64,000 nucleotides of DNA from an uncultured delta proteobacterium (lineage in GTDB: Bacteria; Myxococcota_A; Polyangia; Polyangiales; Houyiibacteriaceae): contig CAVOVB010000002.1 of the NCBI GenBank assembly GCA_963699755.1, positions 192,001 to 256,000 on the forward strand, written 5' to 3'. The first letter of the stretch is position 1. Every line of letters starts with the position of its first letter. Under the pieces are notes generated by a model, which was not told where the DNA came from, did no database searches, and saw only the letters and a list, made by a program, of their open reading frames with translations. Of this stretch, positions 324-4,395 are shown piece by piece. Made by a program: the position numbers and the translations under genes.

Positions 324-530
324 ATGACCGACGAGGGGGAAACCAGCGAGCTCGATCGCGCTCGGCGCCACTTCCTGAGGGCCACGGCCTACATGGCACC
401 TGCGATACTCGCGACTATCACGCTGAACAAGGCTCATGCGCAGGCCTCGTGCAGCCCTTCAACCTGTATGCCAGGGGTCTGCAACCCAAACGGCTGTAAC
501 CCACTGACCTGCATGCCCGCCGGTGGATGA
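324..530 (+). CDS. Putative RiPP precursor peptide (68 aa): Tat-like leader plus (CxPxx)5 core
   Basis: ATG at 324 within the track ORF 93..530. MTDEGETSELDRARRHFLRATAYMAPAILATITLNKAHAQASCSPSTCMPGVCNPNGCNPLTCMPAGG. Directly upstream of the radical SAM and PqqD genes. Confidence 0.8.
   Translation: MTDEGETSELDRARRHFLRATAYMAPAILATITLNKAHAQASCSPSTCMPGVCNPNGCNPLTCMPAGG
450..524 (+). repeat. Five tandem 15-nt/5-aa units encoding CSPST-CMPGV-CNPNG-CNPLT-CMPAG
   Basis: Cys and Pro are invariant at positions 1 and 3. TCMP and CNP each occur twice. Confidence 0.9.
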
Positions 531-1686
531 AGCGGGTGGAACCGTTCACGAAGCCACGATGAACGCGACCGGATACTTCTTGCCCGACGACTGGATCCTC
601 TGGCACAGCGAGGGATCGCTCGAAGCCACGAAGCTGAGCAGCGGAGACCAGATCCGAATCGAAGGCACGCCCGAGCGCGATCCATTGAATAGCGAACTGT
701 CCGCATCCATTTGGGATTCGCTGGCTCGGTTTGAACCTCTCCTAGGGCAACTTCGAAGACAACTCCAAGAGCGGGCACTTCAACCGCTCACGCGAGAAAC
801 CGTCTTGCGGGGTTCTGGATGGAAACAGCTATTCGTAGAGCTTACCGCGAAGTGCAACGAGCGATGTGTCCATTGCTATGCTGAATCGTCGCCTGCCCGG
901 ACGGAGGCGCTTGCCTGGCCGGAGATCAGCAAGGTACTCGAAGATGCGAAGGCGCTGGACTTTGGCCTGGTGCAGTTTACGGGTGGAGATCCTCTGATCA
1001 GCGCCCATTGCGTCCGAGCCGTGGAGTTTGCGAAAGAGATCGGAATTCCGCGCGTCGAGATCTACACGAATGGCCTCGCGCTTCGCGGAAGGATCTACGA
1101 GCGCTTGCGCGAGCTCGCGCCCTCGTTTGCGTTTTCCTTCTACTCACACGATCCCGAAACCCATGACGCCATCACCCAGACCCCAGGTAGTCATGCACGC
1201 ACCGCGCGAGCGATTCGACGCGCGGTGGACGATGGATTGAACGTACGCGTAGGTGTCATCTCGATGGAGCGGAACCAACACGATGCATCGAAGACCTACG
1301 AATATTTGCTGGAGCTCGGCGTGACTGGCAACTCAATCGGTTTCGATCAAGTGCGCGACGTCGGTCGAGGGGACGCCGTACCCATAGAAACCGATACACG
1401 ACCGGCGGGCGTCCGGAGCGGTGGCGTCGAGAGCGCGCGACCACGAAACTTCGGCGGCTCGGCGGCGGTAGGCTACGACGGCACGGTGTACCCGTGCATC
1501 TTCAGTCGGCACCTGCCACTCGGATCGATTCATGACACCAGCCTCCAGGCGATTCTCAGGTCTGCCGAGCCGATCGCCTCGAAAAAGAGAAGCCTACTGA
1601 CGGCCCGCGAACGATGGGGTGCAAAGCTCTCCTGTTGGGAGTGCCAGGCCCGATCCGTACTGCTCGATGGGAGGTGCAATGCCTGA
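523..1686 (+). CDS. Radical SAM protein with degenerate SPASM/Twitch-like C-terminus (putative peptide maturase)
   Basis: ELTAKCNERCVHCY (CxxxCxxC), FTGGDP, YTNG, DGTVYPC and terminal CWEC. GTG 523 overlaps the precursor stop; alternative ATG at 559. Confidence 0.9.
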   Translation: MDEAGGTVHEATMNATGYFLPDDWILWHSEGSLEATKLSSGDQIRIEGTPERDPLNSELSASIWDSLARFEPLLGQLRRQLQERALQPLTRETVLRGSGWKQLFVELTAKCNERCVHCYAESSPARTEALAWPEISKVLEDAKALDFGLVQFTGGDPLISAHCVRAVEFAKEIGIPRVEIYTNGLALRGRIYERLRELAPSFAFSFYSHDPETHDAITQTPGSHARTARAIRRAVDDGLNVRVGVISMERNQHDASKTYEYLLELGVTGNSIGFDQVRDVGRGDAVPIETDTRPAGVRSGGVESARPRNFGGSAAVGYDGTVYPCIFSRHLPLGSIHDTSLQAILRSAEPIASKKRSLLTARERWGAKLSCWECQARSVLLDGRCNA

Positions 1687-1972
1687 TGCTTCCGATCGAC
1701 GCGTGCCCAAGCGCAAAGACACACTCACGCATGAGGTCACCGATACCGACGAAGTCGTGATCTACGACGGCAGCGGTCCGCAATTGCTCGTCTTGAACGA
1801 TATTGCCGCGGGCGTTTGGCTGATGATCGACGGCGCACGAACAGTCGACGACATTACCGCCGAAATCCTGAACCATCTCGAGGCGGAGCCTGCGACGGTG
1901 ACCCGTGACGTGCTCGCGTTCTTGGGCCAGCTCGAGCAACGAAAGCTCATCGCATGGCAAGAGGCAACCTAG
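1679..1972 (+). CDS. PqqD-family RiPP recognition element (RRE)
   Basis: 97 aa. DEVVIYD...LNDIAAGVWLMIDGARTVDDI...DVLAFLGQLEQRKLI is the PqqD pattern. GGAGGT SD before ATG 1679. Confidence 0.9.
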   Translation: MPDASDRRVPKRKDTLTHEVTDTDEVVIYDGSGPQLLVLNDIAAGVWLMIDGARTVDDITAEILNHLEAEPATVTRDVLAFLGQLEQRKLIAWQEAT

Positions 1973-2775
1973 AGCAGCACGAGATCTTTCTCTCCGGCCT
2001 GCGTGTTCGCGTACAAAGCAGCTGCACGAGAACGAATCGTTACCTACGACGTCACTGGTCCGCTGCGAAGCTGCCGATGCTGCCGACCGAGGTCAGCTGC
2101 GACATGGAGGTGATCGCCGACGCATCACCTCGAATCATCGTGGATGGCGAAGTGGTCTGGGCCGACGGTGCCGCCGAATATCTGGTCGCTGGTTTCGAGC
2201 AGCGGCTCTATCGCGCGGCGCTCGCGAAGCACCGAGGCCGATTTGCTGTATTTCACGCAGCAGCGCTGGTGTCGGATGGAGCGACTGTCGTTTTCTCCGG
2301 ACCGTCAGGCGCCGGGAAGAGCTCGCTTGCGCTCGCGGCGGTTCGGCGCGGTTGGAAGTATTTTTCCGATGAGTTCGTGGTCACCGACGGCCAGAGCGTG
2401 TGCGGGTGGCCGCGCGCGATTCGCTTTGATCCTACAGAGCCGGGCGCGCCGTGTCCTGACTACCTCGTCGACCTCGATACCGATCAAGATGCCGTGGAGT
2501 CTCCGCAAGACGTTGGGCCACCGTACTACGCCGTCCGCGGCAACGCCTTGCAACGCGTCGCCTGTTCTGCCCGCGAGGTGCGTTTCGTTAGCGTAGAGCG
2601 TGGTACAGATACGACCCTATCCCGCGTCTCAGCGAGTGTCGGCCTGAAGTATTGGATGGAGGCTGCGTTTATCGAGCCAACGATGTCCTTGGGCGCGCTC
2701 GTCGGCGACGGACGGACTTGGCGCGCGTCGTGGCGCCACCCAGAAGAGCTCATCGAGCTGATCGAAACGATATGA
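1954..2775 (+). CDS. HPr kinase-like P-loop kinase
   Basis: FHAAAL...FSGPSGAGKSSLA...YFSDE: His, Walker A and SDE/D motif of the HprK-related family. Confidence 0.8.
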   Translation: MARGNLEQHEIFLSGLRVRVQSSCTRTNRYLRRHWSAAKLPMLPTEVSCDMEVIADASPRIIVDGEVVWADGAAEYLVAGFEQRLYRAALAKHRGRFAVFHAAALVSDGATVVFSGPSGAGKSSLALAAVRRGWKYFSDEFVVTDGQSVCGWPRAIRFDPTEPGAPCPDYLVDLDTDQDAVESPQDVGPPYYAVRGNALQRVACSAREVRFVSVERGTDTTLSRVSASVGLKYWMEAAFIEPTMSLGALVGDGRTWRASWRHPEELIELIETI

Positions 2776-3551
2776 CGGGAAGCAACCCAAGCCTACGATA
2801 TCGATTGCTTCGAGGCTGGGCGCTGCAGAGTCGCAAAGTTCAGTACCTCATGCGTCGAATCGAGGACGCGGTCACCGTTTGGACCGGAGCCATCTTGAAC
2901 GGACTGCTTCGTGACGCCGAAAAAGAAGCCCTGTCAATCGACCTCTACGATGCCTCGTTTCGGCCCGACAACGATCATCAGGGGCTCTATGAATGGGAGC
3001 AGCAATGGTTCGAACGACGCTTGCCAGCTGCTCCAGCGTCCATTTTGATTGGTGCAGCCGGTGCGGGGCGTGAAGTCTGTGCCCTTCGAGAGCTCGGCTA
3101 TCGGGTTCATGCGTTTGAGCCCTCCGCATCGGCTTTTGAGCTCTGTCAGATCAAAGTCGGCTCGGAGTTTGTCGAGCAAGCGAGCTATCAGGATCTCGTT
3201 GCGACGATACTCCGTGGCGAGAGCACGCGACTGCGGCTCGGGAGCGAAGCAAAATTCGATGCCGTGCTGCTGGGCTGGGGGAGTTTCGGACACGTGCTTC
3301 AGCGCGCCGACCGCTTGGAGTTGCTCCGTGCGTGCGACATCCTCGCGCCGACTGGCCCGATTCTCGTGAGTATCTTCGAACCGAACGCCAGAGCCTCGAC
3401 GAATGGGACCTACTACATGCCATGGGGCGGCTTCCTGGTACGGCCTACACCCGAAGAGCTCGAGCAGCACGCGAAGGCCTTGAATCGGCAACTCGTCATG
3501 TCGCTTCGGGCGCCGAGCCCGTACGCCACTTTGATCCCCAACGGCTACTGA
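2772..3551 (+). CDS. Class I SAM-dependent methyltransferase-like protein
   Basis: ILIGAAGAGRE motif I, VHAFEPS motif II, FDAVLLGWGSFGH. ATGA overlap with the kinase stop. Confidence 0.75.
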   Translation: MTGSNPSLRYRLLRGWALQSRKVQYLMRRIEDAVTVWTGAILNGLLRDAEKEALSIDLYDASFRPDNDHQGLYEWEQQWFERRLPAAPASILIGAAGAGREVCALRELGYRVHAFEPSASAFELCQIKVGSEFVEQASYQDLVATILRGESTRLRLGSEAKFDAVLLGWGSFGHVLQRADRLELLRACDILAPTGPILVSIFEPNARASTNGTYYMPWGGFLVRPTPEELEQHAKALNRQLVMSLRAPSPYATLIPNGY

Positions 3552-4395
3552 ACCGCGTCAAGAGGCGGCGCGCCGCTTCGTCCGCGTGCGCAACGAGCGA
3601 ACGCGAACCCGCTGCCAAGGAGCGATCCAACAGGTGTGGCGTCCACCATCGAGGCGAGCCTGCGTTCGTGCTCGTAGCTAGCCGCACCACCGCGATCACA
3701 ATCCGGTCCCAACGCGAGAGCTCCAATGCGCGATTCGTTGCGCATGCGATGGGGTCTTCGCGAAACGACTCATGGCCGAGCACATAGGCAGCTGCACGCT
3801 GAAGGCCCAACGCCCGAAAATGGGCTCCCAAGGTTTCTGCATCTTCAAGTCGATAGAGGTTTTCCTTCAGCAGCCATCGAATGTCGTCGAGACTCGTGTC
3901 CTGACGAAACGTCCCGCGTCCCTTTACGAAATGACCGATCAAATGCGCTAAGAGGTCTTGATCAGATATCCGTGCGACTGGCGCGGCAAAAAGCGATGTG
4001 TCTATCGCTGCCCGCGAGAAAACGTCATCCGTAGACATGTCGAACAGGCCGTGTGGAAAGAGGTGGTGGTGCACGTCGATGCTGAGCGGCCACGAATCAC
4101 TGGCAAACGTTCTCCCGGCGCTTGAATCCACCGTCGCTTCGAACCCCAGCGCGTGCAGCACCAGGGTCGCCGCTTCGATATCCGAGCTGCGTACCAGGAC
4201 GTCGATGTCGACGAGATCCCGCCGCCCCCGCAAGGCAGGCCACCTCGCCAGCAAGAACGCGCCCTTCAGTGGCATCAACACGATGCCCCGCTCGGCACAT
4301 CCCTCGAAGACTTGATTTGCTAGACCAAGCGCCAGTTCGCCGACGAGCCTGGTGCGAAGGCGGTCTTGAGCAGCGTGGTCCACTAGGGCTATCAT
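3496..4395 (-). CDS. Nucleotidyltransferase family protein (NTP_transf_5-like)
   Basis: PLKGAFL...RRDLVDIDVLV...IDVHHHLF...HLIGH. Confidence 0.8.
   Translation of the reverse strand: MIALVDHAAQDRLRTRLVGELALGLANQVFEGCAERGIVLMPLKGAFLLARWPALRGRRDLVDIDVLVRSSDIEAATLVLHALGFEATVDSSAGRTFASDSWPLSIDVHHHLFPHGLFDMSTDDVFSRAAIDTSLFAAPVARISDQDLLAHLIGHFVKGRGTFRQDTSLDDIRWLLKENLYRLEDAETLGAHFRALGLQRAAAYVLGHESFREDPIACATNRALELSRWDRIVIAVVRLATSTNAGSPRWWTPHLLDRSLAAGSRSLVAHADEAARRLLTRFSSRWGSKWRTGSAPEAT

Follow-up and report, generated by a model that had tools for sequence, protein, structure and literature searches.

The leader of a small precursor peptide encoded at positions 324 to 530 of the analysed DNA is rather likely to be a dual-purpose sequence, acting both as a Tat signal and as an RRE leader, from which signal peptidase I is predicted to release a product of 29 aa. 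The window, which is the whole stretch of 64,000 nucleotides that was analysed, originates from an uncultured delta proteobacterium. The presence of a Tat motif, a YxxP motif and an AxA site within one leader is confirmed as a real observation and lies far beyond chance.

The precursor peptide and its leader

The precursor consists of the following features.

324..530, plus strand: precursor gene, 68 aa, with a 39-aa leader and a 29-aa core of five C-x-P-x-x repeats
First 13 residues, ahead of the Arg-Arg pair, plus strand: acidic N-region with a net charge of -4
363..380, plus strand: twin-arginine motif RRHFLR (aa 14-19), matching the TatP regular expression, with Ala, not Ser, ahead of it
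381..428, plus strand: h-region of 16 residues without charge, moderately hydrophobic, which holds YMAPAI
390..407, plus strand: putative RRE recognition motif YMAPAI (aa 23-28), of the form [Y/W]xxPx[I/V], within the h-region
429..440, plus strand: c-region with the basic Lys36 followed by AHA (aa 37-39, nucleotides 432-440), the predicted signal peptidase I site
441..527, plus strand: predicted mature core, 29 aa, 2,798 Da unmodified, which begins with Gln-Ala-Ser-Cys and holds the conserved S-C-x-P motif

The twin-arginine motif ARRHFLR reported in the first-pass annotation is present, as the translation places RRHFLR at aa 14-19, and the AxA site is found where it was proposed, with AHA at aa 37-39 and a predicted cut after nucleotide 440 that leaves the 29-aa core. 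A YxxPxL-like motif had also been reported in the hydrophobic stretch. YMAPAI indeed lies there, but the motif is YxxPxI, which fits the published RRE leader consensus [Y/W]xxPx[L/V/I/A/F/Y] (PMC13381572). The core contains five Cys, five Pro and no charged residues. A longer frame of 145 aa, starting from TTG at position 93, was considered as the precursor and is unsupported because homologues align from the Met at 324. In total, 35 precursor homologues were listed and aligned, among them P0002, which is apparently encoded by the window's own source. With the leader profile, no second precursor copy was found in the host genome. A promoter and terminator scan gave nothing 5' of the precursor gene, where no Shine-Dalgarno sequence was seen. 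In RNA data, small word shares were found in 14 runs, and contigs from two of four RNA runs span the precursor with approximately 92-94% identity, although contigs cannot show transcription.

The leader features were compared with chance expectation using a rule set of our own, consisting of the TatP regular expression followed by at least 13 uncharged residues with a mean KD of at least 1 and then AxA. When the first 45 aa were shuffled 200,000 times, these rules were satisfied in 9e-5 of the shuffles, and in none when YxxP was added. Among the 19,229 short ATG ORFs of the host genome, eight follow the Tat rules, and only the precursor has YxxP as well. None of the 25 other RR-motif candidates of the host carries YxxP at the matching place. 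The host's own RR candidates include ones with AHA-Q and ASA-Q ends.

Conservation of the leader in related loci

In the alignment of close sequences, R14, R15, Y23, P26, A37, A39 and Q40 are kept in 36 of 36. A search with the kinase gave matches in 26 of 61 related genomes, and 20 regions were fetched around the strong matches, leaving out the weak ones; all 20 contain a precursor with RR, YxxP and AxA, the copy in L039 being without a start. The leader profile matched in 16 of the 401 genomes of the phylum Myxococcota, in which the precursor family is thus patchy, and the radical SAM gene is present in seven of the eight regions newly fetched in this way. One leader-profile match without a cassette (L074, E 6.5e-4) was dropped as a family member.

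A sampling that is independent of the leader was obtained by searching GTDB with the radical SAM alignment, from which the best 80 of 139 relatives were kept, in genomes that are partly the same as before. These 80 belong to Myxococcota and Zetaproteobacteria, with single records from Planctomycetales, Thermoanaerobaculia and Gammaproteobacteria. The family is common in Zetaproteobacteria, where 30 of the 61 genomes sampled have the radical SAM gene. At a threshold of at least 20 bits, 85 precursors were found in 74 of these best 80 of 139 loci; the six loci without one are two with assembly gaps just upstream, three at contig edges and one that is intact (L104).

In the 85 precursors from the best 80 of 139 loci, RR is kept in all, and after dereplication of the leaders at 70% identity or above it is kept in 43 of 43. 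Lys occurs at neither Arg in any of the 85, while positions -7 and -4 swap between Lys and Arg. The TatP expression RR.[FGAVML][LITMVF] matches all 85 and the narrower RRx[FL][LIMV][KR] matches 70; the Phe position of the twin-arginine motif is Leu in 74-85% of precursors. The spacing from RR to [Y/W]xxP is nine residues in 85 of 85, with Tyr in 94%, Trp in 5% and Pro in 100%, and 83 of 85 have [Y/W]xxPx[L/V/I/A/F/Y], a count that the anchor pattern itself favours. In the h-region of the same 85 (Y-3 to Y+11), only six of 1,275 positions are charged. An uncharged run of at least 13 residues is present in 82 of these 85 and a basic c-region residue in 60. The site class in this set (best 80 of 139 loci) is AxA in 71, lipobox-like (G/A/S-Cys) in three and a near variant in 11, such as A-L-G, V-E-A and S-F-A. 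The distance from Tyr to the cut varies between 16 and 21 residues among precursors.

A leader-profile search of 1.84 billion representatives resulted in 228 matches at E <=0.001. Among the matches listed (150 of 228), all are 48-151 aa long, and 147 could be anchored by the motif pattern, the other three being dropped. Of these 147 representatives among the matches listed, RR is present in 146 (absent from P0091), AxA in 121, a lipobox-like end in 11 and neither in 15, and the N-region ahead of RR is negative in 124. AxA lies at the modal distance in 116 of the 147, compared with 20 +/- 4 in shuffled windows. Since this set was selected by the leader profile, these motif counts are partly circular. 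Also, the leader is joined to Cys-free cores, some of them very short, in 17 of the 147 representatives among the matches listed (e.g., P0079, P0124, P0127, P0130 and P0136), and other modification systems may use the leader there. Overall, both RR and a site of the signal peptidase type are kept in Myxococcota, in Zetaproteobacteria and in a small number of further lineages, and the lack of conservation that was to count against the first-pass reading is not seen.

The gene cassette and its neighbourhood

The precursor gene is followed by multiple genes for putative modification enzymes.

559..1686, plus strand: radical SAM enzyme, in which three Cys are conserved near the C-terminus (Twitch-like) and the N-terminal domain is predicted to be RRE-like
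1679..1972, plus strand: stand-alone PqqD/RRE with a conserved Tyr/Pro pocket (N40, D77, F81, L85)
1954..2775, plus strand: HprK-related kinase (TIGR04352, E 3e-12, below the cut-off)
2772..3551, plus strand: SAM-dependent methyltransferase (NF041820, E 7e-8, below the cut-off)
3496..4395, minus strand: PF14907 nucleotidyltransferase, convergent

The radical SAM ORF could begin at GTG 523, and its N-terminal domain is modelled with three strands and three helices. The closest titled relatives of this enzyme (94%) are from Polyangiales MAGs. The HprK-related kinase is present in 47 of 60 distant loci and the nucleotidyltransferase in 14 of 20 loci and 36 of 60 distant loci. The methyltransferase is found in 17 of 20 loci and is accessory, not family-wide. 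In L080 (625-760) and L095 (2691-2950), a degenerate duplicate of the precursor leader lies between the precursor and the radical SAM gene, and its first part is in frame with the radical SAM N-terminus.

It had been noted that the visible cluster contains no peptidase or ABC exporter, and that the DNA left of the window should be inspected for them. In the 20 kb read there, neither was seen. This region encodes an RRM protein, an enoyl-CoA hydratase family protein similar to MenB, TetR, SCP2, Amt and other housekeeping genes, named from their translations and partly confirmed on the syntenic relatives L036 and L041. Also left of the window (G000:C2, approximately 172,000-181,000), a V/A-type ATPase operon can be read from the translations. 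Also across the loci, no dedicated peptidase or exporter recurs near the cassette, so the conserved upstream gene of this kind that would have spoken against the first-pass reading was not found. When 90 and 60 neighbouring ORFs, taken from some of the loci, were scanned against Pfam, the only peptidases seen were one-offs. The 605 ORFs called in the 60 distant loci were clustered, resulting in 29 families present in at least three loci, of which four are cassette genes; among the 25 others, which were scanned, no leader-peptidase family was found, and one is a penicillin-binding protein. In the host genome, which is 100% complete with 9% contamination, PF13471 (lasso B2) and PF03412 (C39 peptidase) were not found.

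The only recurrent transporter is an MFS protein in 19 of the 60 distant loci, all from Zetaproteobacteria. It is present in 56 of the 61 Zetaproteobacteria genomes, among them 28 of the 31 that do not have the radical SAM gene, and was rejected as a dedicated exporter because it is a housekeeping gene of the class. As the radical SAM gene is present in 30 of these 61 genomes only, the MFS gene is read as an insertion site. An ABC ATPase was rejected as well, being present in just four of 60 loci, and an M48 peptidase (L048) and an imelysin with a TonB receptor (L046) are non-recurrent neighbours. In L046 (315-7241), genes for TonB, imelysin, an HTTM protein and a TonB-dependent receptor directly abut the radical SAM gene, which is a metal-uptake context seen in one genome.

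Probable recognition of the leader by PqqD

Docking of the leader YxxP motif on the RRE is backed by conservation of the predicted pocket residues and weakly by a modelled complex. PqqD is the only match to PF05402 in the host genome. The best PDB matches to its profile are TbiB1, LppB (second-best), two PqqD entries, TfuB1 and PbaB1, of which TbiB1, LppB and TfuB1 are RREs that bind YxxP, and its AlphaFold model (pLDDT 80) matches TbiB1 with a TM-score of 0.75. The invariant residues N40, D77, F81 and L85 align with N33, D70, F74 and M78 of LppB, which have been described to hold the leader Pro and Tyr and to line a second pocket, with D70 forming a hydrogen bond to the leader Tyr (PMC13381572). 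An RRE was found in 77 of the best 80 of 139 loci, and the pocket Asn and the pocket Asp (D77) are each kept in 76 of these 77; the pocket Phe is often Ile in Zetaproteobacteria. The sole RRE of the 77 (best 80 of 139 loci) without the Tyr-binding Asp is that of L104, the intact locus without a precursor (n=1). The L104 cassette, in which no precursor is detectable, is possibly decaying or retargeted. Covariation of a leader Tyr-to-Trp change with the pocket Asp was considered and rejected, as all three Trp loci with an RRE keep the Asp.

In ESMFold2, PqqD with the leader reached a score of 0.42, compared with 0.20 for the best control. At least 91% of contacts are shared between runs, and the partner pLDDT is at least 62. 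The calibration mark is reached by 116 of 157 solved and two of 215 mismatched pairs; at scores of 0.60 or below, it is reached by only 18 solved pairs and by both mismatches, and similar complexes have already been solved. W/Y/LxxP leader motifs have been described as not specific to lasso peptides (PMC12710340). In PMC5067487, no passage on YxxP was found.

Tat and signal peptidase features

The leader agrees with the published description of a Tat signal in its motif, h-region and c-region features (PMC6708511). The twin-arginine consensus is S-R-R-x-F-L-K, as given in the source of the TatP expression (PMC1182353), and TATFIND has been outlined in PMC6085387. Signal peptide N-regions are described as positive (PMC6708511), and the N-region of the precursor, with its net charge of -4, does not have this property of Tat signals. 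The profile TIGR02811 matches the precursor with E 0.054. TIGR01409 gave no match to it at E up to 10, though 18 other places in the genome match. Changing RR to KK stops Tat export (PMC6708511), and attempts at Tat routing or display of lanthipeptide precursors have been reported as preliminary and unsuccessful (PMC5686179). For Tat, an unfolded peptide of only 29 aa is an unusual cargo.

TatC is encoded in the host, and 49 of 51 carrier genomes have it as well (covering 50 of the 80 loci), which is weak evidence because TatC is widespread anyway, being present in 11 of 14 control genomes. Two S26 homologues are encoded in the host, both among housekeeping genes, and one of them is of the LepB type with an intact catalytic pair. 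Judged by what we take to be the family motif, the second (G000:C8:88587-89210) seemingly has neither the catalytic Ser nor the catalytic Lys.

The lipobox-like precursors, with G/A/S-Cys ends instead of AxA, occur in loci L068/L129, L070, L071, L141 and L153, and among the representatives in P0076, P0080, P0089, P0110, P0120, P0121, P0125, P0126, P0154, P0157 and P0182. This minority of relatives may include candidate Tat lipopeptides, several with non-canonical lipoboxes. Because the -3 residue is non-canonical in several of these ends, lipidation is no more than a suggestion.

The predicted product

Judged from the encoded enzymes and the core, the product probably carries thioether links, phosphate and a pyroglutamyl end. 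The best match of the radical SAM enzyme, both in sequence and in fold, is SkfB. The enzyme keeps the three C-terminal Cys and is without the pre-hairpin Cys; by comparison with SkfB and CteB, this suggests that an iron site is left open to a substrate thiol, from which thioether links are predicted. A SPASM/Twitch enzyme with a predicted open auxiliary site together with a Cys-rich core, the features by which sactipeptides and ranthipeptides are recognized, are both present in the sequence.

LppK phosphorylates Ser3 of the LPP core (PMC13381572), and by analogy phosphorylation of the core Ser is likely. The core has Ser at +3, and S/T-Cys lies at +2 to +5 in most precursors from outside Zetaproteobacteria and often far downstream in those from Zetaproteobacteria. 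Outside Zetaproteobacteria, the first Cys motif is most often S-C-x-P, at a distance from the cut that varies. Zetaproteobacteria loci such as L111, L122, L123, L127, L131, L144 and L152 have one to three precursors each with long Cys-rich cores, which contain C-C-P-C or S-C-x-P motifs, often behind linkers rich in Gly, Ser, Asn and His. The ESM Atlas gave clusters without names and a family of radical SAM targets with Cys-Xaa-Xaa-Xaa repeats, which are leads only.

An N-terminal pyroglutamate on the product, as had been suggested, is plausible, since a predicted glutaminyl cyclase (PF05096) with a lipoprotein-like N-terminus is encoded in the host. Pyroglutamate capping of signal peptidase I products has been described in Bacteroidetes (PMC5837995, PMC10653852). 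PF05096 is present in 10 of 25 carriers outside Zetaproteobacteria (one match being partial) and in none of the 26 Zetaproteobacteria carriers. Gln directly follows AxA in 32 of 41 precursors from outside Zetaproteobacteria and is not among the six commonest residues after the cut in those from Zetaproteobacteria. Gln at +1 and the cyclase thus share a clade split among genomes that are kin, with exceptions such as L097-L099, L102, L106 and L135, which have Gln at +1 and no PF05096 found in the genome. A periplasmic metal-binding or envelope role for the product is a guess, based on the Cys content and on polysaccharide-gene neighbours of L070 and L105.

Proposed pathway and alternative explanations

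In the proposed pathway, PqqD would bind Y23, P26 and I28, burying part of the h-region and keeping the precursor from the translocase. The radical SAM enzyme would then cross-link Cys residues through thioethers, phosphorylation of the S-C-x-P Ser would fall to the HprK-like kinase, and the nucleotidyltransferase and methyltransferase would attach further groups. After release from PqqD, the modified peptide would cross Tat, the housekeeping signal peptidase I would cleave after AHA, and the host glutaminyl cyclase would cap Gln1 as pyroglutamate. A wider reading, which we regard as possible with slightly more doubt than belief, is a multi-phylum class of Tat-exported RiPPs, in which the RRE would act as a Tat proofreading chaperone that masks the hydrophobic core until cross-linking and phosphorylation, and in which one leader would give soluble pyroglutamyl forms (through signal peptidase I) and membrane-anchored lipopeptide forms (through signal peptidase II).

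The leader could also be purely cytoplasmic, with the RRxLLK helix and YxxP forming one epitope for PqqD or for the RRE-like domain of the radical SAM enzyme, an unlinked protease cutting at AxA and the likeness to Tat being incidental. The rigid RR-to-Tyr spacing, next to a Tyr-to-cut distance of 16-21 residues, suggests that one protein reads RR and YxxP as one surface, and RR may therefore be kept for enzyme binding; in the radical SAM enzyme, the modelled N-terminal domain could accommodate a second epitope. An RRE-dependent leader peptidase similar to signal peptidases is known in LPPs (PMC13381572). The acidic N-region and the missing TIGR01409 match point the same way. However, a cytoplasmic leader leaves unexplained the 16-residue charge-free stretch, the basic c-region in 60 of 85 precursors (best 80 of 139 loci), the occurrence of AxA-Gln and lipobox-like ends as alternatives at one place, and the absence of a linked peptidase or exporter. 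In addition, both S26 homologues of the host lie among housekeeping genes, and the second is seemingly without the catalytic Ser and Lys. On balance, we consider this explanation unlikely.

Export by Sec instead of Tat, with the same cut by signal peptidase I as in the bufferins, appears quite unlikely. Sec with signal peptidase is a proven RiPP route (PMC11626156), the TatP expression alone gives 4-15% false positives, and several RR proteins of B. subtilis use Sec (PMC1182353). Against this stand the strict Arg-Arg without Lys, the acidic N-region, the 39-residue length, the low h-region hydrophobicity and the basic c-region, and macrocycles are expected to be poor Sec substrates (PMC11626156). 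It is very unlikely that the leader is just a Tat signal, with YxxP playing no part in RRE binding and the enzymes recognizing the core, as in the bufferins: the bufferin signal peptide is dispensable for modification (PMC11626156) and the PqqD-leader complex model is weak, but Tyr/Trp and Pro hardly change while the remainder of the h-region varies, YxxP is missing from the host's other RR candidates (0/25), and the PqqD pocket residues are conserved to match. On comparative grounds, the dual-purpose Tat and RRE leader remains the preferred reading.

Significance and comparison with known systems

Signal-peptide RiPPs have been published for Sec (PMC11626156, PMC12452194) and for the lipoprotein pathway (PMC13056109), and the word Tat is absent from these three texts. 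In the literature searched, mostly open-access texts without supplements, no natural Tat-exported RiPP was found described. If the dual-purpose reading is true, Tat joins the known RiPP export routes, and one leader is both an RRE epitope and a signal peptide, a combination thought unlikely for lipoprotein-signal RiPPs (PMC13056109). It would also explain how cross-linked peptides exit without a dedicated peptidase or transporter, and would assign the precursor to the class of HprK/PqqD/nucleotidyltransferase cassettes. The two predicted leader functions should be separable by point mutations, and the leader could be used for secreting engineered macrocyclic peptides.

Multiple known systems share parts of this arrangement. 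In NapD/NapA (PMC3712460) and TorD/TorA (PMC6708511), one Tat signal likewise holds overlapping sites for transport and for a maturation factor; in these two systems, however, large redox enzymes are exported and the chaperones do not belong to the RREs. SkfB and CteB (PMC6231123) have one Cys after the beta-hairpin and two later ones, as does the radical SAM enzyme, which likewise has no pre-hairpin Cys. The identity is approximately 19%, the enzyme has CxxC instead of CxC, and its PqqD is separate.

The bufferins are alike in being Cys-containing RiPPs with a housekeeping signal peptide as leader and without a dedicated peptidase or exporter, and unlike in using Sec, not Tat, and MNIO, not radical SAM, chemistry (PMC11626156). 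No match to an MNIO enzyme was found in the cassette or the scanned neighbourhoods. Bufferin-type RREs have no defined leader motif (PMC12710340), unlike the YxxP found here. Other related signal-peptide RiPPs are oxazolin, chryseobasin and cinnamycin, as cited in PMC11626156. The DAG-RiPPs, which are RiPP-lipoprotein hybrids, are a parallel to the lipobox-like minority (11 of 147 representatives among the matches listed). They are MNIO-modified, their authors expect leader-independent pathways, and their description mentions neither Tat nor RRE (PMC13056109).

The LPPs of Bacillota share the YxxP leader, the stand-alone RRE, the HprK-like kinase and the NTP transferase, and the LppK target Ser3 has a counterpart in the Ser at +3 of the cassette core (PMC13381572). 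Their leader is removed by an enzyme of the signal peptidase family, which is alike in kind to the cut predicted here. However, LPP clusters come with genes for a peptidase (LppS) and for an MsbA-like exporter, neither of which is in the cassette, and the LPP leader is polar, with H, Q and E in the consensus after YxxP, whereas the cassette leader has an uncharged h-region (PMC13381572). The radical SAM enzyme and the Cys-Pro repeat core are extra in the cassette, and its Ser is part of an S-C-x-P motif whose distance from the cut varies, unlike the LPP Ser3. The comparison with lasso leaders made in the first-pass annotation holds for the RRE, as lasso leaders and B1 RREs (TbiB1, TfuB1, PbaB1) share [Y/W]xxPx[hydrophobic] and the RRE fold, but not for the remainder of the system, since neither a macrolactam cyclase nor a B2 peptidase is found in the cassette; L070 is the only relative with an Asn synthase nearby. 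The precursor system is therefore not a lasso peptide and not an LPP, but a variant of the signal-peptide RiPPs.
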